Source: Candidatus Saccharimonadales bacterium
Lineage (GTDB): Bacteria > Patescibacteriota > Saccharimonadia > Saccharimonadales > DASZAF01
Length of the DNA: 64,000 nt
Assembly (NCBI GenBank): GCA_035945435.1
Contig: DASZAF010000016.1
Span: 359-64,358 of the forward strand
Direction: 5' to 3'
The position numbers and the translations under genes are program-made. The notes beneath the pieces were generated by a model. That model saw only the letters and a list, made by a program, of their open reading frames with translations. It ran no database searches and was not told the DNA's origin. This document shows, in pieces, positions 1-8,935 of the stretch. How positions within the stretch are numbered: position 1 is the first letter of the stretch; the number at the start of each line of letters is the position of its first letter.

Positions 1-469
1 TGCCAGCTGTTTTGCCTTTAATCTGCACTCCTCGATACTTCATAAAGTCAGCATCAAAATCTAGTGGGAAGTTGTCTTTAATTAAACGGGGAGTTTGCCG
101 AGCTAGATTAAACATCATAGTAACTGCCCACTCTGCTACGGCCTGAGTTGAGAAGTTCTTGATATTACAAATAGGTATGCCACGCTTATCGGCAGTGTCT
201 TTATCAATATATCCAAAGGCAGTTGAAGCAACTAAAATAGCTTTAAGATTAGGTATATTCTCATAGTCTTTACTTGTGAGCTTCCAACCAATGTAGTCAG
301 GGTTAAGACACAGCAAGCGTTCTTCATTACCAGCGAACAACTCTGGCGTTTCACTCAATGGTTTTACATCAGTTATAACAGTAAGGTCTGCTTTGCTTTC
401 AGCTAATTGTTCCTCAAGCTTTTCATCAACTAACTTTGTCCATAGAGGGTCAAATATAAATACTTTCAT
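1..469 (-). CDS. D-isomer-specific 2-hydroxyacid dehydrogenase family protein (N-terminal part only; the gene runs off the left edge)
   Basis: Not in the ORF track because it is truncated. Reverse-strand translation from the ATG at 469-467 gives MKVFIFDPLW...AILVASTAFGYIDKDTADKRGIPICNIKNFSTQAVAEWAVTMMFNLARQ...GVQIKGKTAG. This is typical of the catalytic-to-NAD-binding domain junction of D-2-hydroxyacid dehydrogenases. Confidence 0.6.
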   Translation of the reverse strand, partial: MKVFIFDPLWTKLVDEKLEEQLAESKADLTVITDVKPLSETPELFAGNEERLLCLNPDYIGWKLTSKDYENIPNLKAILVASTAFGYIDKDTADKRGIPICNIKNFSTQAVAEWAVTMMFNLARQTPRLIKDNFPLDFDADFMKYRGVQIKGKTAG

Positions 470-503
470 GGTCTAATAATACCTTATTTACCGCCTAAAA
501 TTG

Positions 504-523
504 TATAATACAGATAGTAGGAG
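504..523 (+). promoter_or_regulatory. Putative -10 box (TATAAT, 504-509) and Shine-Dalgarno (AGGAG, 519-523) for the DUF4236 gene
   Basis: The motif ttgTATAATa is followed by tAGGAGat, which lies 6 nt before the ATG at 530. Confidence 0.35.
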
Positions 524-529
524 ATATGT

Positions 530-1693
530 ATGTCATTGCGATACCGCAGGTCAATAAGACTAGCAAAGGGAGTAAAGCTTAATCTAACTAAAACTGGTGT
601 AGGCATGACTGTTGGCGGTAAAGGCGCACACTATTCTGTTCATAGTAGTGGACGTCGCACCGCTTCAGTGGGTATGCCAGGCACGGGACTTTACTACCAA
701 AAGCGAACTAGTAGCAAATCACGCGATGCCGTCACACCACGCACGACCACTGCACCACAGCCGAGTGTACATGCTACACCGGCACAGCAAAAACAAGCTA
801 ATGCGATAGGAAGTACAGATGACGCGCTAAAGGTGACAAGTGATAGCTACGCACTATTTCGTACACAACTTACTACTCTGCTTGAATGGCGTAAAGTAAA
901 ACGTGCTGAGGTTACAGAGGCAAAGTCACAGCTTAAAACATTGACTGCTCACTACAATCGAAGACGCGCAATGGTGTTGAAACGATTTTATGTTGACGCA
1001 GAAGCGGCGATGAACCAGCAAGCAGAGGTAGTAGCGTCACTTGAGCAAGAACTCAATGAGAAGTCCATGAGTTTGTCTTTTGCAAATAGTCCACAATTTG
1101 CCAGCACATGGACAGACTGTGTCACTACGTTTAATGAGCTAATGGGGAGCGAACGAGTCTGGGACATCACATACTCAACTGCCGTAAACAAGTTCAAAGA
1201 CCGGAGCGTTGCTAACAATAGCTTCAATCGTACTTTGATACAAGAAACTCCCGAGCCATTGGCATACATAAATAGTGATGTTGACTGCTTAGCATTACCT
1301 GGTGCCAATAATTCAAGTATCTACATTTATCCAACGTTTCTCTTAATCTTTAGGAGTTACCATGAGTTTGGCATCTTCGACTTGAAAGAGGTTCGCCCTG
1401 GAATACATTTGACCAAGTTTATCGAAAGCGAAGGAGTGCCAAAGGATACTGTTGTCGTAGGTCAAACTTGGTATAAGACCAACAAAGACGGTACCAAGGA
1501 CAAACGCTTCAACGGCAACTACCAGATACCCATAGTTCAGTATGGAGAGCTGCTATTTGAGAGTGCTAAGGGACTGCAAGAGTTCTATATGTTCAGCAAC
1601 ATTAAGGCGTTTGCTTCATTTTCAAAGGCGCTTGCAGCACACTACCAAGTAATCGCAAAAACAAAAACTCAAGCAACGGCTATAAGAAGCTAG
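530..1693 (+). CDS. DUF4236 domain-containing protein
   Basis: The N-terminus MSLRYRRSIRLAKGVKLNLTKTGVGMTVGGKGAHYSV matches the DUF4236 signature (basic R-x-x-K-G-V-x-L-N-L-S/T-K-x-G). The C-terminal 200 aa have no family I recognise. Confidence 0.6.
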   Translation: MSLRYRRSIRLAKGVKLNLTKTGVGMTVGGKGAHYSVHSSGRRTASVGMPGTGLYYQKRTSSKSRDAVTPRTTTAPQPSVHATPAQQKQANAIGSTDDALKVTSDSYALFRTQLTTLLEWRKVKRAEVTEAKSQLKTLTAHYNRRRAMVLKRFYVDAEAAMNQQAEVVASLEQELNEKSMSLSFANSPQFASTWTDCVTTFNELMGSERVWDITYSTAVNKFKDRSVANNSFNRTLIQETPEPLAYINSDVDCLALPGANNSSIYIYPTFLLIFRSYHEFGIFDLKEVRPGIHLTKFIESEGVPKDTVVVGQTWYKTNKDGTKDKRFNGNYQIPIVQYGELLFESAKGLQEFYMFSNIKAFASFSKALAAHYQVIAKTKTQATAIRS

Positions 1694-1750
1694 ACGCTAC
1701 TACAGTTGCTTAGCATTAGCCTTCTAAGTGAGGTTTATAATATATATGGT

Positions 1751-3112
1751 ATGAGCGCAAGGAAGAATAGTAAGAAATCTCAAAAAGCATACAAACCAAA
1801 GCCGCCAAAGGTAGGTACTGATGTTGGTGAAGAAGAGAAACGCTATAAAGCATTTACTGAGCTGGCTATAAAAGGCGGTGCTGAACTTCGTAAAAAACTC
1901 AAGTTAAGCGAAGATGCGTTCTCATTAGTCTATGGCCCTAATACTGGTAACCCCAAGAAATACTATCTTACGGGGGTTTTGAATGAAGTCGAAAAGGCCG
2001 GTATGGCCATGATGTATACGGCTGACTTTGTCGTAGAAAGCAAGAAAAAACCAGAGCCAGAAATAACTGACGCTACAGGTTATCGGATTGCGAACAATGC
2101 TATCCAAGTCAAGATTGATGAATTAACAGTTTCTGAGCGAAAGTTGACCGAAACGTTGGTTGACTTAGTGGGTTTTCGGCGCGCAGATGAGGCAGACTAT
2201 TATCGACATTACATCGTACTCCACGAATTAGATGCCAAGAAGAAAATCCAGAATGACATGCATGAGTTTTCAGGAGTGAAGAGTAAAAACCTTGCTTTCC
2301 AGATTGAAGAACTTGAAAAACAAGCTGATGCGCTAGCGGCCAAGCTTGACCCAGCAAAGTGCTGGTATGCCAAGAAGCGTCGTGGCGTTCTGACAAGGAA
2401 TATCAGCACGTTTAGCGAGCGATTTAAAGAAGTTTTCCCTTACATGAAAGAGTATGAACAGGCGACACTTTACACTTATGGCGCATCGTTTGGTAGACAA
2501 AGCGGGTTCCTGCATTCTGGTAAGCCAGTGGAGCGACGTAAGTTAACCCTTAATACTTTAGGTGCACACGTCGGTCGTATTGGCACTTTAGCACCGGGTG
2601 TTCTAACGGCTACAAAAGACCTAGGCCACTTAAACAACGTCAAAGGCATCTTAAAAACTATATCCGACGTAACAAAGAAGAATGATTACCCCATTAAGCT
2701 CTTCAGGCAAAAAACAAAGCCGAAAATAGTTGAGGGTGATTTTGTGGTAACAGTTTGGGGTAGCCTGGGTCAAGTTACAAAAGTTATCAAAAGTAAATAT
2801 GGTTATAAAAGCTTTCGAGTAAAGTACTTAACTGATATGCCCTTACCTGACATGCCGGTTGACGATTTTCCCGCTGAAAATGTTCGATTAGTCTACGCTA
2901 GGAAGCCACTCGTTGAGCAATTAAGGCAAGAAATACATAAGGCCACGCCCGAACTAAAACCTGGTACGAGAGAGCTAAACAAATTGATGACCGAGAGCGT
3001 TTTACACCTATGGAATAACGTCGGTCTCAAGGAGTTCACGCTTAACAACCCGAAAGCTGGTTATGAAAAAATTCAACAGGAAATTGATAGGATAAATTCT
3101 CCCAAGAAATAG
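1751..3112 (+). CDS. Hypothetical protein (453 aa, lysine-rich N-terminus)
   Basis: Long ORF. The ATG at 1751 (MSARKNSKK) is preferred over the TTG at 1706 given in the track. No recognisable domain. Confidence 0.45.
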   Translation: MSARKNSKKSQKAYKPKPPKVGTDVGEEEKRYKAFTELAIKGGAELRKKLKLSEDAFSLVYGPNTGNPKKYYLTGVLNEVEKAGMAMMYTADFVVESKKKPEPEITDATGYRIANNAIQVKIDELTVSERKLTETLVDLVGFRRADEADYYRHYIVLHELDAKKKIQNDMHEFSGVKSKNLAFQIEELEKQADALAAKLDPAKCWYAKKRRGVLTRNISTFSERFKEVFPYMKEYEQATLYTYGASFGRQSGFLHSGKPVERRKLTLNTLGAHVGRIGTLAPGVLTATKDLGHLNNVKGILKTISDVTKKNDYPIKLFRQKTKPKIVEGDFVVTVWGSLGQVTKVIKSKYGYKSFRVKYLTDMPLPDMPVDDFPAENVRLVYARKPLVEQLRQEIHKATPELKPGTRELNKLMTESVLHLWNNVGLKEFTLNNPKAGYEKIQQEIDRINSPKK

Positions 3113-3113
3113 G

Positions 3114-3410
3114 TTACTGACACTGCACTCCACCAACTCCTATTAAGTGCACAATAGACAGCCTAATCATATTTAATAATCCGTGGTCTACTAAGCAGTG
3201 CCCTGTAGCCTGCCTAACGCTGATTATTGACCATATGACGAGGCAGCCTACTAGAGCAAACCATGTAATAAGGTAAACTTTTGTGTCAATTCCTTCTGAA
3301 TGAGAAGGCTTTGAGCCGACTTTTGCCATGATAGTACTTATTAGAAGTGCGATAGCACCGCTAATAAAAACAGTCCCCCAAAATGTTAAGAACAGTACTA
3401 GCAATATCAT
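3114..3410 (-). CDS. Small membrane protein (98 aa, 2-3 predicted TM helices)
   Basis: Hydrophobic segments MILLVLFLTFWGTVFISGAIALLISTIM and VYLITWFALVGCLVIWSII. It lies downstream of the 76-aa membrane protein gene on the same strand. Confidence 0.4.
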   Translation of the reverse strand: MILLVLFLTFWGTVFISGAIALLISTIMAKVGSKPSHSEGIDTKVYLITWFALVGCLVIWSIISVRQATGHCLVDHGLLNMIRLSIVHLIGVGGVQCQ

Positions 3411-3459
3411 ATTATTCCAACCCTGCCTATTACTAGGGTCTGAGTGTATGTGGAGTTCT

Positions 3460-3690
3460 TCATGCTTTCTTACCTGACTGCTTGCGCTTGTTTAAAACCT
3501 TTTGTGCATACACGAGATACACGACAAGTCCAAAAATACTGCATAAAAATCCTATGAATTCCACAAGTAGCGCTTTCGGCATATCGACAGGCAATTTATT
3601 GCGCTTATAGGCTCTGTGGCAGTAAATCCAGAACAGTATAAATGCAATTGCTCCAATACTTTGACCAACTTGCTGTGCATTGCTTTCCAT
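3460..3690 (-). CDS. Small membrane protein (76 aa, 2 TM helices)
   Basis: A strong Shine-Dalgarno (GAGGAG) sits 5 nt upstream of the ATG at 3690. Two hydrophobic helices are present (IGAIAFILFWIY and FIGFLCSIFGLVVYLVY). Confidence 0.5.
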   Translation of the reverse strand: MESNAQQVGQSIGAIAFILFWIYCHRAYKRNKLPVDMPKALLVEFIGFLCSIFGLVVYLVYAQKVLNKRKQSGKKA

Positions 3691-3720
3691 TCAATCTCCT
3701 CTTGAATTTTCCTGCGGCCA

Positions 3721-3748
3721 AAAATAAAAAACGACACCGCAAGGTGTC
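3721..3748 (-). terminator. Intrinsic terminator (minus strand)
   Basis: On the minus strand the sequence reads GACACC-TTGC-GGTGTC followed by GTTTTTTATTTT. This is a perfect 6-bp GC-rich stem with a tetraloop and a U-run. Confidence 0.7.
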
Positions 3749-3853
3749 TAAAGCCATTCACAAGTCAGCTTTCGCCGAAATGCTTATGCGGTGCCGTTTC
3801 TCACGGCGAACCGCAATTAAATTGCGCTTCTGACTTGATAATGACTTTAGACG
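3722..3853 (-). ncRNA. Candidate structured RNA of about 130 nt (sRNA, or cis-regulatory leader of the two small membrane-protein genes)
   Basis: An extended -10 promoter lies just upstream. The helices are nested: 3746-3753/3845-3852, 3755-3758/3840-3843 and 3761-3768/3830-3837, enclosing hairpins 3771-3777/3804-3810 and 3812-3817/3821-3826. An intrinsic terminator follows. There is no ORF on this strand. Confidence 0.45.
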
Positions 3854-3859
3854 TTGGTA

Positions 3860-3868
3860 ATTATACCA
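3860..3868 (-). promoter_or_regulatory. Extended -10 promoter (TGgTATAAT on the minus strand)
   Basis: The reverse complement of 3860-3868 is TGGTATAAT. The predicted transcription start, about 7 nt downstream, coincides with the outer helix of the structured RNA. Confidence 0.45.
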
Positions 3869-3993
3869 TTTACCCCTGTAATCCCCAAGCATAAGCGTAA
3901 AAATAAAACCCCTAGTGCTTGCTGTCTAACCCCTTATACACGAAAATATAGGAACGGGTGTGGGCGAAAACAAGTATGAATATGGGAATGTAA

Positions 3994-4749
3994 ATGAACC
4001 TAAAAGCTCAAGTTAAACATATTGAAGGCAAAAGTTTAGCCTGGCGCAGGCTTGCCGTATTCTTTAGAGAAGAGTCAATCTATGAGCTAATCAAAACCCT
4101 GGGTATTTATTCGCGAAAAGGCTATTTTGAGTATGAGCTTAGGATTAGTAGTGGATACTATGACTGGACACAGGCTCGTCGGGATATACAGTTTCGCACA
4201 GATGTTTTTCAGCCGTCTCTTGGCTTTAAGGGGCTATATCAACAAGACCCCTATGGGTTACATGTTAAAGGCAAGTTACCACTCTCAGAGAAAGAAATAA
4301 ATGAAGTCGTAGAAAAACTGCCGCCTGATATAGCCGAAAAGTATTTATTATTCAGCCTGACAAATATCAATCAGGGCAAATTCATGAAGCTCATTTCTAA
4401 GTTACTAGATGAAAATAGTGCTGACGATGACATATTTTATCCACCAGTTCAGTATCGAGAACTGAAGGTTGATGGTGATGGAATTTATTATAAAAACAAG
4501 CCGTTTGAAATGGACTACCCCCATCGGCAAGCTATGCGTATTTTGATAGAAAAGAAAGGCAAACCTTGCGATTACGAAGATTTTAAGGACGATGACGCAG
4601 GGATTTTTATTAAAAGCATTAGAGAATACCCTAATATCAATCACACCATACGTAACCTTATCTATGAATTACGCGGTGAATTACTGATTAACACGGGTAA
4701 GCGACTTATCGAGAACCATGAAAAAGGTGGCTGGTATCTAGATATTTGA
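3994..4749 (+). CDS. Hypothetical protein with a possible C-terminal winged-helix (OmpR/PhoB-type) DNA-binding domain
   Basis: The C-terminus ...QAMRILIEKKGKPCDYEDF...INHTIRNLIYELRGELLINTGKRLIENHEKGGWYLDI resembles the trans_reg_C pattern (recognition helix plus a terminal beta-hairpin G-x-G-Y/W-x-L). The gene is monocistronic with its own terminator. Confidence 0.35.
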   Translation: MNLKAQVKHIEGKSLAWRRLAVFFREESIYELIKTLGIYSRKGYFEYELRISSGYYDWTQARRDIQFRTDVFQPSLGFKGLYQQDPYGLHVKGKLPLSEKEINEVVEKLPPDIAEKYLLFSLTNINQGKFMKLISKLLDENSADDDIFYPPVQYRELKVDGDGIYYKNKPFEMDYPHRQAMRILIEKKGKPCDYEDFKDDDAGIFIKSIREYPNINHTIRNLIYELRGELLINTGKRLIENHEKGGWYLDI

Positions 4750-4780
4750 CCGCAACTATTACTGACAACTGACTGACCCT

Positions 4781-4810
4781 ACACCCCTCATACTCAGGGG
4801 TGTTTTTAGT
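4781..4810 (+). terminator. Intrinsic terminator
   Basis: ACACCCCT-catactc-AGGGGTGT forms an 8-bp perfect stem and is followed by TTTTTAGTTT. Confidence 0.75.
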
Positions 4811-4819
4811 TTAAGGAGC

Positions 4820-5071
4820 ATGTCTATGGATATGGACGAACCAGTCATTAGAATACACGATTTGGGGCTTGCGGCTGCGCTGGTGAGCCACGACTTCAAG
4901 TTACATGCTACTGACCGTGACCAAAATGGCCGCCTCTACTTTATCTTTAGACAAACTGACAACCTAACTCAAGACATTGACGCATATTGGGCTGACACAC
5001 TCGTCGTTAAGGCGCGGACGTACTCAGACAATATCAAGATGCTTAAATCACGGATTTACGGAGAGCGGTAA
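4820..5071 (+). CDS. Hypothetical small protein (83 aa)
   Basis: The ORF has a Shine-Dalgarno (AAGGAG) upstream. No confident family assignment. Confidence 0.4.
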   Translation: MSMDMDEPVIRIHDLGLAAALVSHDFKLHATDRDQNGRLYFIFRQTDNLTQDIDAYWADTLVVKARTYSDNIKMLKSRIYGER

Positions 5072-5073
5072 CT

Positions 5074-5271
5074 ATGCGGCTCAGTGCAAGTTTAATAGCG
5101 AAGTTTCAGAAAAGGTACTTTGAGACCTTCGGTGAAGCTATTACGGCGGAACTCGCCGAATCGGAGCTGTTGAGTCTTGCCGAGCTGGTAGAGATTACGC
5201 GGAAGTTAGTCAAAGCAACCAATAAGGGAAATGGCAATGAAAAACAATCAAGCACCAAAAACCACAGTTGA
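5074..5271 (+). CDS. Hypothetical small helical protein (65 aa)
   Basis: The ORF starts 2 nt after the upstream stop, which suggests translational coupling. No recognised domain. Confidence 0.35.
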   Translation: MRLSASLIAKFQKRYFETFGEAITAELAESELLSLAELVEITRKLVKATNKGNGNEKQSSTKNHS

Positions 5272-6754
5272 CCAAATAATTGCTGCCTTGACGGAAAGTG
5301 CTGTTAAGCTTTTTCACGACCAGTACAATGAGCCGTATATTGCTTACGACGGCAACGGCAGTAACGTCAGCAAAGTTCATTCAAATATAGCCAAGCTATG
5401 GCTAGTTCACTATTGTCACACCCAGCTAGGCAAAGTTCCTAGCACTGATGCAGTCAACCGTGTGCTGGATACACTGGCGGCACGCGCCCACTTTGACGGT
5501 AAGCAGCATGCTCTGGAAGCTCGCAGCGTCTACAACAAAGAGGGCTTGTGGTACGACCTTGGTGGCAGTGCTGTACATGTCACGCCGGAACGGTGGGAAG
5601 TCATCGAGCAGCCGCCAATCATTTTTAGGCGCTTCTCACATCAAAAACCCCAGGTTGTACCACGGCGCGGCGGAGACCTACGAGCACTCTTAAAGTATGT
5701 CAATATAACCGACGAAGCCGAACAACTACTGTTTCTGGTCTACGTTGTGGCAGCATTTATACCTGACTACCCGCACCCACTCTTAATCCTGCATGGTATA
5801 CAAGGTGCTGGTAAAACTACGCCGATGATGATTATGAAAGACCTGATTGACCCGTCGTCGCTTAGAGAGGGTTTTTCACTGCCCAGCAAAGAGAGTGAAT
5901 TTGCCCAAATCGCCAACCATCATTACTTCTTATTCTTCGACAACCTTTCGACGATGCCCGAAGCGTTTTCTGATACCCTGGCCAGGGCGGTGACTGGCGG
6001 TAGTTTTAGTAAGCGCGGCCTGTACACCGATGACGACGATGTTATCTACCGCTTTCAAAGGACTATTGCCCTTAATAGCATCAACCAGGTGGTCTACAAA
6101 TCCGACCTGCTAGACCGCTCAATCCTTATACATTTAGAGCGCATTAGCGAGGATAAACGCAAGCCGTCCCAGCTTTTCTGGGCTGAGTTTGAGCATGACC
6201 TGCCAGACATACTGGGTGCAATCTTTGATGTATCAGTTAAGGCTCTCGCGTTGCGACCAAACGTTAAGCTCGACAAAGCAACCCGAATGGCCGACTTTTT
6301 ACACTGGGGCTATGCTATTGCAGAAGCAGCCGGATATAGCGGCAAGGCATTCGAGCAAGCTTACTACGCCAACATCGCCACCCAGCATGACGAAGCGATT
6401 GAGGCCAATCCAGTCGCTCAGGCAATCATGGAGTTTATTAAAGACCAGGCAACGTGGACGGGCACGCCATCCGAACTATACGCACTGCTCACCCCGATAG
6501 CGTTCAAACTGGGGGTTAGTAATAGCCGAGGCTGGCCAAAAGATGCACCACGGCTTGGCAGGGTGCTGGAAATCCTAACCCCAAACCTTGCTGCTAAGGG
6601 TATCGTGCTAGAGCGGTCACGCGCTCAACAACGACTAATAACCATAACTAATACTACTGTCGTTACTGTCGTTACTGACGTTACCCCTGTAATAAATGCC
6701 TCTGATGATGACGGTACGACGGCAACGACGGCACAATCGGAGTTTAAGATGTAA
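5231..6754 (+). CDS. P-loop NTPase, phage/plasmid SF3 (D5/P4-alpha-like) helicase family; putative replication protein of the element
   Basis: Walker A is LHGIQGAGKTT and Walker B-like is YFLFFDNLS. Next comes LARAVTGGSFSKRGLYTDDDDVIYRFQRTIALNSIN...DLLDRSILIHLERI. That pattern resembles the D5/P4-type block (lTGgD-x-i-x-R-x-lY...f-x-p...N...d-x-a-x-x-R). Confidence 0.55.
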   Translation: MAMKNNQAPKTTVDQIIAALTESAVKLFHDQYNEPYIAYDGNGSNVSKVHSNIAKLWLVHYCHTQLGKVPSTDAVNRVLDTLAARAHFDGKQHALEARSVYNKEGLWYDLGGSAVHVTPERWEVIEQPPIIFRRFSHQKPQVVPRRGGDLRALLKYVNITDEAEQLLFLVYVVAAFIPDYPHPLLILHGIQGAGKTTPMMIMKDLIDPSSLREGFSLPSKESEFAQIANHHYFLFFDNLSTMPEAFSDTLARAVTGGSFSKRGLYTDDDDVIYRFQRTIALNSINQVVYKSDLLDRSILIHLERISEDKRKPSQLFWAEFEHDLPDILGAIFDVSVKALALRPNVKLDKATRMADFLHWGYAIAEAAGYSGKAFEQAYYANIATQHDEAIEANPVAQAIMEFIKDQATWTGTPSELYALLTPIAFKLGVSNSRGWPKDAPRLGRVLEILTPNLAAKGIVLERSRAQQRLITITNTTVVTVVTDVTPVINASDDDGTTATTAQSEFKM

Positions 6755-6824
6755 CACATAATCAAGATAACAATAAGGGGAAAGATATTTAAGATGCTAG
6801 TCAATAATTTTAAGGAGGTTAGAG

Positions 6825-7091
6825 ATGGACAAATTAAACAATAAAACCGGTATTACTTTTCGCCTACAAGTCAAAGACTATAAGTTCAGAAGTGATGAAG
6901 GCAACACCTTCGATTTTGAAGATTGCACCGATTTGCATAGACTTTTTGCTTGGGCAATCGGCCATGTTGTAGATGAGTATGTATTTGAAGAACTACTTAA
7001 AGGTGATATTTCCAATATAACGATTGTGCTAAGCCCTGATAACTTAAAGGAGGAAGACTTTGTGACCGAAAATACAGGGTATAAGCTCTAA
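6825..7091 (+). CDS. Hypothetical protein (88 aa)
   Basis: The ORF is preceded by the Shine-Dalgarno AAGGAGG. No recognised domain. Confidence 0.4.
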   Translation: MDKLNNKTGITFRLQVKDYKFRSDEGNTFDFEDCTDLHRLFAWAIGHVVDEYVFEELLKGDISNITIVLSPDNLKEEDFVTENTGYKL

Positions 7092-7158
7092 CAATATGGA
7101 GATAGATATGTACGACAACACTTTAATAAGCTATAATATAAATGTTTTCACATCTGGT

Positions 7159-7184
7159 AGACACGCTGTTCGTGTTTTTATTTC
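7159..7184 (+). terminator. Intrinsic terminator-like hairpin
   Basis: agACACG-ctgtt-CGTGTtt is followed by TTTATTT. Confidence 0.45.
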
Positions 7185-7194
7185 TGCTCTTCAA

Positions 7195-7259
7195 GGGCAG
7201 CATGGTGCAGAAAGAAGCGAATAGCGACTGGATGTGAAAACAGCCATGCTGTCCTTTTT
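7195..7259 (+). promoter_or_regulatory. Long-range hairpin plus T-run immediately upstream of the recombinase gene (possible attenuator)
   Basis: GGGCAGCATGG (7195-7205) pairs with CCATGCTGTCC (7244-7254) over 11 bp, including one G-T pair, with a 38-nt loop. TTTTT follows at 7255-7259, 16 nt before the ATG at 7275. Confidence 0.35.
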
Positions 7260-7274
7260 GATAGGAATAAAACC

Positions 7275-8924
7275 ATGAACTACTCAGAACTAAAATTTGC
7301 CTTGTACGCCCGTAAGTCCACCGAGGACGAGGGTAAGCAGGTTCAGTCTATAGAAGACCAGATACACTATATGCGGCAAAAAGCTGATGACTGTGGTATA
7401 AAGCTAAAACGCAAAGACATTATCACCGAGGAGAAATCCGCTAAGGCACCTGGTAAACGGCCGAAGTTTTTGCAACTAATTGCTGACATCAAAGCCGGTA
7501 AGTACAACGCTATAACCTGCTGGCAGACCAACCGCCTGGCTCGTAACCCCGAAGAAGCGGGTATTATCCAACAACTACTGCAAGACGGAATTATCAAGTG
7601 TATTGTGACCAGTGACCGAACTTACTACCCCGAAGACAATGCTGTGGTGTTTGCTGTAGAGATGAGCATAGCCAATCAGTTTGTCCGCGACCTTATGAAG
7701 AATGTCCGCCGTGGCATGTATTCCAAAGCCGAAAAAGGCTGGTACCCTGGCAGGCCACCAATCGGCTACAAAAACGACCGTGAGGAGAAAATCATAATTG
7801 AAGACCCTGAGCGCTTTGATATGGTGCGCCGTATGTGGGACATGATGCTGACTGGTACCTACACCGTTAAGGCAATCGGTGAAATTGCCGATAAAGAATG
7901 GGGCTTACGCACTATCAAGCGCAAGAAAAGCGGCAATAAACCGCTGTCTTACAGTGGTGTTTATGATATGTTCCACAATCCCTTTTATAAAGGCGTCATA
8001 CGCTACGGTGGTACAGAAAACCCTGGCAAGCATACAGCAATGGTTACCGAGGAAGAATATGACCGCGTGCAAAGCCTTATACACACCAAACTACCGGAAC
8101 GGGCAAAGAATAAGGAGTACATCTTTGCTTTTCGTGGCATGCTTAAGTGCGGTGAGTGTGGCTGCTCTATAACACCGCAACATACCGTGACCACTAAGAA
8201 AAGCGGTGTTGTTCATGAGTACGACTATTACCGCTGCACACTCCGCCGCCGTGATTATAAATGCACCCAAAAGAAGTACCTAACCGAAGACAATCTCAAC
8301 GAGCAGATTAAGCAGGAGCTAAAGACGCGCACCATCATGCCACGCTTTTATGAGTTGGCAGTTATGGCTTTGCAAGAAATGAATGAAGATAAAATCACCA
8401 AGCAGATTAAGGTGAGCGAAACGCAGAACAAGGCCATTGTCACCAAAGAAACCGAAATCCGTGAGCTTGGCCGCATGCGCTACCGTGGCGAGTGTCCTGA
8501 TGATGAGTTCTACGCCTCTGAAAAGGATAAGCTTGACCAAGAACTCAAAGACCTCAAGAAAGCCCGTGAGAAAGCTGAAAAACGAGCTAATGACTGGCGA
8601 GCTGTAGCAGACGAAACTTTTAGCTTTGCCCGTTATGCCGAAGAAGACTTTAATAGCGACAGCCTTGAGAATAAACGGAAGGTCTTGGCAAAACTCGGTC
8701 AGAACCTCACGCTGCTAGATGGAAAAATCCATTTTACCCCTAATAAATACATGGTGCCGGTGCAACAGGCATATCCAGACCTTGCAGCCCGCTTAGAGGC
8801 CGTTAGAAACGCCCCACAACAGATACGAGAACGGGTTGAAGCAGAGGTCAAATCTGAATGGTACACCCGGCAGGATTCGAACCTACGACCTTCGGCTCCG
8901 CAAGCCGACGCTCTATCCAGCTGA
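7275..8924 (+). CDS. Large serine recombinase (resolvase/invertase N-domain, recombinase domain, zinc ribbon, coiled coil)
   Basis: The N-terminus KFALYARKSTEDEGKQVQSIEDQ carries the catalytic Ser motif. Also present are WQTNRLARN, a Cys-rich zinc ribbon (LKCGECGCSITPQ...YYRC) and a coiled coil. Codons 529-549 (8859-8921) are the antisense of tRNA-Arg. Confidence 0.9.
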   Translation: MNYSELKFALYARKSTEDEGKQVQSIEDQIHYMRQKADDCGIKLKRKDIITEEKSAKAPGKRPKFLQLIADIKAGKYNAITCWQTNRLARNPEEAGIIQQLLQDGIIKCIVTSDRTYYPEDNAVVFAVEMSIANQFVRDLMKNVRRGMYSKAEKGWYPGRPPIGYKNDREEKIIIEDPERFDMVRRMWDMMLTGTYTVKAIGEIADKEWGLRTIKRKKSGNKPLSYSGVYDMFHNPFYKGVIRYGGTENPGKHTAMVTEEEYDRVQSLIHTKLPERAKNKEYIFAFRGMLKCGECGCSITPQHTVTTKKSGVVHEYDYYRCTLRRRDYKCTQKKYLTEDNLNEQIKQELKTRTIMPRFYELAVMALQEMNEDKITKQIKVSETQNKAIVTKETEIRELGRMRYRGECPDDEFYASEKDKLDQELKDLKKAREKAEKRANDWRAVADETFSFARYAEEDFNSDSLENKRKVLAKLGQNLTLLDGKIHFTPNKYMVPVQQAYPDLAARLEAVRNAPQQIRERVEAEVKSEWYTRQDSNLRPSAPQADALSS

Positions 8925-8935
8925 GCTACGGGTGC
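8859..8935 (-). tRNA. tRNA-Arg (anticodon GCG), CCA encoded
   Basis: The minus strand reads GCACCCG-TA-GCTC-AGCTGGATA-GAGC-G-TCGGC-TTGCGGA-GCCGA-AGGTC-GTAGG-TTCGAAT-CCTGC-CGGGTGT-A-CCA. This folds into a cloverleaf with U33, G37 and a TTCGAAT T-loop. Confidence 0.85.

Follow-up and report, generated by a model that had tools for sequence, protein, structure and literature searches.

The fluoride (crcB) and ZTP (pfl) riboswitches are transcriptional ON switches with a pseudoknot and a terminator in competition, and T-box, PyrR, and trp-type attenuators are classical terminator/antiterminator leaders that are bound by a macromolecule. In the lambda PR′-6S RNA-tR′ arrangement, a strong promoter and a short terminated RNA are placed directly before a mobile-element operon, and satellites and phages have antisense immunity RNAs such as P4 CI RNA and P1 c4. 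The Saccharibacteria, like other Patescibacteria, live as ultrasmall epibionts. The subject of this analysis is a promoter-to-terminator RNA of about 125 bases, located on the minus strand (3852 to approximately 3724) of a 64,000-nt stretch of a Candidatus Saccharimonadales genome (assembly GCA_035945435.1, contig DASZAF010000016.1, positions 359 to 64,358 of the forward strand; henceforth called the window, in whose coordinates all positions are given), where it precedes two small membrane-protein genes. With moderate confidence, the RNA is read here as a cis-acting, riboswitch-like transcription-attenuation leader that heads the cargo operon of Saccharibacteria mobile elements.

Like the crcB and pfl riboswitches, the RNA is a 5′ leader with a compact aptamer-like fold, which is closed by a long-range helix sharing its 3′ strand with an intrinsic terminator, and its folded state would permit read-through. 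It differs from both in that there is no match in sequence or structure, no ligand is assigned to it, its closing helix P1 is unusually long (~20 bp), and it heads varied mobile-element cargo instead of one pathway. With T-box, PyrR, and trp-type leaders it has nested, promoter-proximal alternative pairings in common (the long-range helix versus the terminator and, possibly, UGCGGU/ACCGCA versus the long-range helix), whereas no Rfam T-box match was obtained, no UGGN bulge is present in the alignment of homologues, and neither a specifier loop nor a leader peptide was found. As in the lambda system, expression of the operon would require passage through a promoter-proximal terminator, but the leader described here is an elaborate covarying fold able to pair with that terminator, and no Q-like protein was identified. 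P4 CI and P1 c4 are likewise small RNAs from the leader of a mobile-element operon, with repeated complementary segments governing premature termination, but the Rfam C4 family was not matched and the pairing described here is intramolecular. The lysM-TM7 motif, a candidate cis-regulatory RNA predicted as a 5′ untranslated region element and limited to TM7/Saccharibacteria (Weinberg et al. 2017, PMC5737381), has the same phylum restriction and was the only TM7-specific cis-regulatory candidate found in the literature, but it lies upstream of lysM genes, and no Rfam family (the collection should include it) matched region 3400–4100 at E ≤ 10 apart from two chance matches (CRISPR-DR45, 19 bits; MIR6201, 16 bits).

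A first-pass annotation, made from the letters of the window alone, had been unable to place the RNA in a known riboswitch class, which agrees with this covariance-model scan. At gathering thresholds, the scan of the whole window against Rfam 15 (4227 models) returned four tRNAs only. T-box, RAT, ANTAR, and guanidine-type readings were considered and rejected, as no model matched and the defining motifs are absent. The element was not found described in the literature on Saccharibacteria/Patescibacteria RNA motifs, riboswitches, and structured RNAs, nor in that on DUF5659, a domain encoded in the surrounding islands (see below). The folded RNA is real and previously undescribed; it is a well-supported new RNA family, of the known terminator/antiterminator leader kind, and an orphan riboswitch candidate.

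Conserved fold of the leader RNA

The RNA is preceded by an extended −10 promoter element (TGGTATAAT, 3868→3860, minus strand, direct sequence reading), and seven nucleotides (UACCAAC) separate this element from G3852, the first base of the fold. Transcription probably starts at or just before G3852, and the promoter, judged by its near-consensus sequence, is presumably constitutive. A covariance model of the whole RNA (R1) matched 3724..3852 (minus strand) over model positions 1–129 with 137.1 bits (E = 9e-31), and this was the single copy in the whole window. The minimum free energy (MFE) was −54.5 kcal/mol, compared to −31.9 ± 3.6 kcal/mol in 200 dinucleotide shuffles (z = −6.2).

P1 is formed by a 5′ strand (3830..3852, minus strand; segments 3852–3845, 3843–3840, and 3837–3830) and a 3′ strand (3746..3768, minus strand), with GUCUAAAG (3852–3845) pairing to CUUUAGAC (3753–3746) in the outer segment, CAUU (3843–3840) to AAUG (3758–3755) in the middle segment, and CAAGUCAG (3837–3830) to CUGACUUG (3768–3761) in the inner segment. 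The repeat finder reported the three segments as one 23-nt inverted repeat (I1, 87% complementary). Enclosed by P1 are the hairpin P2 (CGCAAU-UUA-AUUGCG, 3812..3826, minus strand; 3826–3821 with 3817–3812) and the helix P3 (3771..3810, minus strand; 3810–3804 with 3777–3771), which itself encloses a 26-nt loop. The promoter at about 7 nt from the helices, the three P1 segments, and both inner hairpins had all been proposed in the first-pass annotation and were recovered at the positions it gave.

In total, 42 distinct full-length homologue sequences were gathered by four routes. Relatives of the 76-aa protein encoded by the first gene behind the RNA were searched for, of which only six were found, and the contigs of these carry the same RNA upstream. 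A pattern of the conserved core yielded 24 true copies in metagenomes, and an independent terminator-based pattern yielded 19 copies in genomes, 18 of which were labelled Candidatus Saccharibacteria, Saccharimonadia, Saccharimonadales, or Microsaccharimonas, and one “Patescibacteria group bacterium”. Lastly, islands were reached solely via a DUF5659 protein (52–56% identical), and these also carry the RNA (116–141 bits) with an identical invariant core. Samples in which the element is present include SRR12347822 and JGI 3300056800-3300056869. Neither BLAST of 3100–4000 against E. coli genomes, phages, and plasmids nor a pattern scan of viral contigs produced a match. Judged by these sequences, the RNA is restricted to mobile elements of Saccharibacteria. 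Between islands it is the best-conserved DNA (80–86% identity vs ≤68% in flanking genes), and strong purifying selection on the RNA is indicated at the sequence level. One copy (L029:2123-2252) is cut at its 5′ side and has neither the promoter nor the 5′ strand of outer P1; an ORF (open reading frame) resembling, by eye, an IS30-type transposase adjoins the break.

Pairs were counted in the model-based alignment A4 (42 sequences), with P1, P2, P3, and the long-range helix between the P3 loop and the 3′ tail (see below) taken together. Across these helices, 97.8% of cells were paired and both-side changes were seen in 22 of 43 pairs; on five measures, the observed values were reached by none of 500 shuffles on any, and when the registers were slid by 1–3 columns, pairing fell to 29–47%. 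Most of the covariation is found in P1 (both-side changes in 15 of 20 pairs; 98.5–98.6% of cells paired). In P2, both-side changes occur in four of the five modelled pairs, and in L041 the whole hairpin has changed to GUGC-UUCG-GUAC. At the inner closing pair of P3, 27 sequences have G-C, eight A-U, and one G-U, and six are unpaired; the other P3 pairs are near invariant. The compensatory-change check suggested in the first-pass annotation thus came out in favour of the helices: compensatory substitutions are present in independent homologues, and P1 (in its three segments), P2, P3, and the long-range helix are shown by covariation in the aligned sequences to be supported. The wobbles are asymmetric, with 127 G·U/U·G cells vs 8 A·C/C·A cells, and therefore the structure belongs to the transcript and not to a duplex palindrome.

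The MFE fold of the single sequence has a different interior (UGCGGU/ACCGCA plus GCCGU/ACGGC), which received no compensatory support and whose inner pairs are broken in 12–19 sequences; the comparative data prefer the inner hairpins of the first-pass annotation. The MFE inner fold is possible as a transient competitor, not as the conserved fold. Pairing of the 3′ part of the P3 loop (CAUUU) with GAAUG in P1 was rejected as it is lost in L016. A leader peptide was rejected as well, the sole conserved AUG (in GUGAAUGG) having no ribosome-binding site and being ACG in L022.

Within P1, the internal loop (3754–3760) has a nearly invariant 3′ strand, GUGAAUGG, and a variable opposite strand (UCAUUAUC, UCACAAC, UCAGAAC, and others). 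The conserved strand suggests a tertiary contact or a binding site. Kink-turn, sarcin-ricin, and 11-nt receptor motifs were compared with this loop by eye, and their consensus motifs did not fit.

Long-range helix and intrinsic terminator

At the 3′ end of the RNA, a G+C-rich hairpin (GACACC-UUGC-GGUGUC, 3733..3748, minus strand; pattern scan), which is followed by GUUUUUUAUU, stands before a U-run (UUUUUUAUUUUU, 3720..3731, minus strand; direct reading and pattern scan). This is the make-up of an intrinsic terminator, and termination at it is a prediction. All six pairs of the hairpin are invariant in 42 of 42 homologues, and a U-run of ≥4 U is present in 40 of 42 (alignment). The final three nucleotides of the P1 3′ strand (GAC, 3748–3746) double as the base of the terminator, so that hairpin, U-run, and shared nucleotides are as the first-pass annotation had described them.

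A segment of the P3 loop (ACGGCACCGCA, 3787..3797, minus strand; inverted repeat I4) is near-invariant, its first two bases alone varying, and is complementary over 11 bp (3797–3787 with 3741–3731) to UGCGGUGUCGU (3731..3741, minus strand), which spans three bases of the terminator loop, the entire terminator 3′ arm (3738–3733), and two bases before the U-run. Since this long-range helix crosses P1 and P3, it is a pseudoknot. Across the 42 sequences it is 99.3% paired. The outer pair 3797/3731 is A-U in 25, G-C in 15, and other in two sequences, and the pair 3796/3732 is C-G in 39, U-A in two, and U-G in one; both pairs fall outside the two search patterns. The helix contains 17 cells with both-side changes vs 5.5 ± 1.5 in shuffles, 17 being reached by none of 500 shuffles, and the outer pair underwent at least eight state changes on a neighbour-joining tree that was built without these columns.

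The terminator overlaps the long-range helix by six nucleotides (3′ arm) and P1 by three (5′ arm, 3748–3746). As predicted from their shared bases, the long-range helix and the terminator hairpin cannot coexist, which provides the leader with mutually exclusive terminator and antiterminator pairings. The partial competition of P1 with the terminator, which the first-pass annotation had noted, is real, and the stronger competitor, i.e., the P3 loop with the 3′ half of the terminator, had been missed. We infer that transcription terminates at the terminator, that the pseudoknot is the fold that prevents this and reads through, and that some factor shifts the balance.

In the proposed mechanism, the extended −10 promoter would start the RNA, which would fold into a three-way junction of P1 (~20 bp, with the conserved internal loop), P2, and P3. 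As polymerase advances, UGCGGUGUCGU would meet two possible partners. Pairing locally with GACACC, it would form the terminator hairpin before the U-run, and the ~125-nt RNA would be released; pairing over 11 bp with ACGGCACCGCA of the P3 loop, it would form the pseudoknot and remove the terminator, and polymerase would read through into the membrane-protein genes and the cargo. As full closure of P1 takes three further terminator bases, P1 and the pseudoknot would jointly oppose the terminator.

Energies from the nearest-neighbour model were −8.0 kcal/mol for the terminator hairpin, −19.9 kcal/mol for the loop-tail duplex (the long-range helix), −14.6 kcal/mol for P2 and P3 together, and −20.0 kcal/mol for the alternative inner fold. 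When four 5′ bases were added or removed, the MFE flipped between full P1 and P1 shortened by 3 bp together with the terminator, and the competing states are therefore near in energy. In this model, the loop-tail helix could nucleate on U3741–C3739 before the 3′ arm of the terminator is transcribed.

Right behind the U-run lies GGCCGCAGG (3711..3719, minus strand), a partial repeat of the P3-loop motif. Variants (CCGCAGG, CACCGCA, GGCACC, or CGGCACC) stand at the same place in approximately two thirds of the homologues, and the repeat is conserved despite differing downstream genes. In transcripts that read through, pairing between this repeat and UGCGG of the terminator region would be possible.

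Genes and mobile islands around the RNA

The position of the RNA relative to promoter and gene is conserved. All 42 homologues have a TAnnnT hexamer, placed 4–9 nt before P1 begins (6–7 nt in 39); 28 of the 42 hexamers match TATAAT perfectly, and TG is present at −15/−14 in 30 of 42. First genes were called by an ORF walk in 34 loci, several others ending at most ~130 nt past the RNA. In all 34 called loci, a co-oriented start codon with a Shine-Dalgarno sequence lies 18–54 nt past the modelled RNA end, and no −10-like box was found in the gap between RNA and gene in these loci; a gap of this size leaves no room for a second promoter. The RNA thus occupies the 5′-leader position before a co-oriented promoterless gene. 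Promoter, terminator, and close co-oriented gene are all conserved, in line with the layout of a riboswitch or attenuator leader, or of a small RNA, recognised in the first-pass annotation.

In the window, the Shine-Dalgarno GAGGAG (3696..3701, minus strand; direct reading) is followed by the gene of a 76-aa small membrane protein (3460..3690, minus strand; ATG at 3690), whose six close homologues are all encoded behind the same RNA, and by that of a 98-aa membrane protein as the second gene of the operon (3114..3410, minus strand; ORF list and comparison). Both genes and the ribosome-binding site had been given correctly in the first-pass annotation; its claim that the strand has no ORF of 60 aa or more did not hold, as a mechanical 69-aa ORF with a GTG start (3552–3761, minus strand) begins within the RNA and runs out of frame across the 76-aa gene.

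A search for homologues upstream of similar small membrane proteins had been proposed as well, and in most loci the first gene again encodes a small membrane protein, namely one of 50–160 aa predicted to have one to four membrane helices; the families are many and unrelated. Soluble or large first genes also occur, such as the methylase gene of L040 and those for products of 161 aa (L050) and 172 aa (L023). The cargo behind the RNA includes a type III restriction-modification pair in L018, a DNA methylase with a RAMA domain in L040 (where the RNA stands behind a tRNA-Leu), a type IV secretion pilin gene in L047, AAA and STAND ATPases in L056 and L025, and a 1289-aa helicase-like protein in L002, besides many proteins without a recognisable family.

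Serine-recombinase islands with a common core make up about two thirds of the loci; for about one third, none of the tested island core proteins was found within the 5–8 kb fetched. In the window, positions 1–8935 form a low-GC island (42–45% vs ~50% in the remaining window), whose left end lies beyond the window start. The ORF of the large serine recombinase (7275–8924, plus strand) extends 66 nt into tRNA-Arg(GCG) (8859–8935, minus strand), and therefore the island is integrated at that tRNA gene, the end of the reading frame being tRNA sequence. Related islands adjoin smpB instead of tRNA-Arg. The island also encodes a 507-aa P-loop protein, a 65-aa protein, the DUF5659 protein, and a 251-aa protein whose gene is divergent from the RNA, and the two small membrane proteins are on the RNA's side. 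Converging on the RNA operon are a DUF4236 protein (387 aa, PHROG 17982; 530–1693, plus strand) and a 468-aa protein that matches DUF5677 faintly (1706–3112, plus strand), both of which are island cargo.

Upstream of the RNA promoter, an inverted repeat (CAAGCAyNAG ... CTNATGCTTG, window 3889–3925) is kept in the recombinase-island loci and is probably an operator for the divergent promoters. Its half-site has GCATAAGC in common with the P3 loop of the RNA (3782–3789; I20), which may be a coincidence or a common binding site.

A second structured leader (7131–7274, plus strand) was found immediately upstream of the large serine recombinase gene (ATG at 7275). A −10 box (GCTATAAT, 7131–7138) is followed by a ~135-nt fold with a long helix between its 5′ and 3′ parts (GUUUUCACAUCUGG / CUGGAUGUGAAAAC), and the leader ends with a GC-rich helix between apical loop and 3′ tail, UUUU, a Shine-Dalgarno sequence, and the ATG. 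By eye, the apical GGGCGGCUYGG is complementary to CCRAGCCGYCC, which stands immediately ahead of UUUU and the ribosome-binding site. The MFE z-score of this leader was −4.0. It shows 92% identity to islands in which the recombinase identity is only 46%, lies upstream of the recombinase gene also in L002, L014, L023, L025, L036, L037, L038, L043, L048, L055, and L056, and shows both-side changes in 16 of 33 predicted pairs across eleven islands. Rfam 15 at gathering thresholds gave no match to it. Complementarity between the two leaders was looked for, and none is conserved. The loop-tail helix architecture of both leaders suggests a shared RNA-based control logic in the islands.

Alternative readings and implications

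Several points weigh against the attenuation reading. Termination and read-through are themselves deduced from sequence, and the energies given above include no penalty for the pseudoknot. Of its 11 pairs, nine sit in segments fixed by one or other of the search patterns, and hence the invariance of these nine is partly ascertainment; three loci that were ascertained via proteins agree with the pairing. The terminator hairpin is the same in every sequence and so offers no covariation by which it could be confirmed. The long-range helix extends precisely to the U-run and could itself promote termination, in which case both foldings might terminate and there would be no switch. Lastly, the downstream genes are heterogeneous and form no coherent set that would point to one metabolite or ion as the ligand, as the genes behind a riboswitch usually do.

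One alternative is a leader controlled by a protein of the mobile element or the host, or by processive antitermination (as in lambda PR′-6S RNA-tR′ with Q, or of the put/EAR type), with the RNA as loading or recognition site and the terminator keeping the cargo silent until the factor appears. It is a sub-case of the attenuator reading with a macromolecular effector, and we consider it possible without expecting it. The occurrence of the RNA only in mobile-element contexts, where it heads accessory, defence, and transfer genes, would fit, as would the integrase leader of the same architecture in the same islands and the conserved strand GUGAAUGG, which in sequence resembles a binding site. 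Against it, however, about one third of the loci have none of the tested island proteins nearby, and Pfam and PHROGs revealed no RNA-binding or antiterminator protein, hence no candidate factor, among the neighbours. As the RNA is present where tested island core proteins are not found nearby, we think that the putative effector, which would bind the junction or the pseudoknot, is a host factor, a small molecule, or an ion and less likely an island protein.

The main rival, though in our judgement rather unlikely, is a stand-alone small RNA, which would always be terminated at the U-run and whose ~125-nt product would act in trans, for example via its invariant single-stranded loop CGGCACCGCAUAAGCA or by protein binding; the pseudoknotted form would protect its 3′ end, and the downstream genes would be expressed through leak only. 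The RNA possesses both a strong promoter of its own and a terminator of canonical type, the P3 loop is conserved far beyond pairing needs, the genes behind it are diverse, either folding could terminate given that the long-range helix abuts the U-run, and L044 has no convincing downstream ORF. What speaks for a leader instead is the co-oriented Shine-Dalgarno gene at 18–54 nt in the 34 called loci, for which no other promoter is evident. In addition, the invariant overlaps of three nucleotides between P1 and terminator and of six between pseudoknot and terminator suit a switch better than a simple end, and there is no known trans target.

A type I toxin-antitoxin-like module, in which small hydrophobic toxins are kept untranslated by a structured 5′ region or by the terminated RNA, would agree with the size and the membrane helices of most first genes, but these genes belong to many unrelated families, are frequently yet not universally small membrane proteins, and are sometimes soluble or large (L040, L050, L023). 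Moreover, a promoter scan of 3000–4800 found no antisense promoter opposite the 76-aa gene (one weak plus-strand match lies within the RNA region, at 3835–3864), and such regulatory logic as the sequence reveals acts on transcription. We regard this reading as very improbable. Hardly credible is the alternative raised in the first-pass annotation that the 107-bp imperfect palindrome is a DNA element, such as a replication origin for the neighbouring helicase, or, in a wider form, that it serves the helicase or recombinase as a single-strand origin or a site of recombination: it does lie between core and cargo modules of an island encoding a P-loop replication-type protein and a serine recombinase, but it is excluded as an origin by the strand-specific wobbles, the reach of the covariation into the pseudoknot and the small internal hairpins, the fixed-distance promoter with terminator and U-run following, and its occurrence, for example in L040 and L047, without the tested replication protein and recombinase within the 5–8 kb fetched. 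The repeat finder detected no iterons, and integration in the window is at tRNA-Arg, on the opposite end of the island.

The attenuation leader, taken together with the integrase leader, permits a wider reading, which we put forward as speculation. Saccharibacteria mobile elements might run their life cycle on paired structured leaders, one heading the cargo operon and one the integrase gene (7131–7274), with a helix between apical loop and 3′ tail beside the U-run as the decision point in each; the cargo leader might be a new riboswitch class that senses a host-derived or physiological signal, e.g., whether the cell is attached to its bacterial host or what state that host is in. If true, it would give the Candidate Phyla Radiation its first lineage-specific regulatory RNA switch.

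Saccharibacteria and Patescibacteria are understudied, and an inducible expression system for them is still to be developed, with riboswitches named as promising (2024 perspective, PMC11665869, according to which some Saccharibacteria strains are reported to be naturally transformable); if the attenuation reading is correct, the leader would be a possible part of a genetic tool for these bacteria. For the serine-recombinase island family in Saccharibacteria genomes and metagenomes, the RNA provides a sharp sequence marker. As a phylum-specific terminator/pseudoknot leader, it would also provide a handle on how mobile elements control genes for defence, transfer, and membrane proteins, and, as a candidate orphan riboswitch, it would have a ligand that could reveal a signal relevant to the epibiotic lifestyle.

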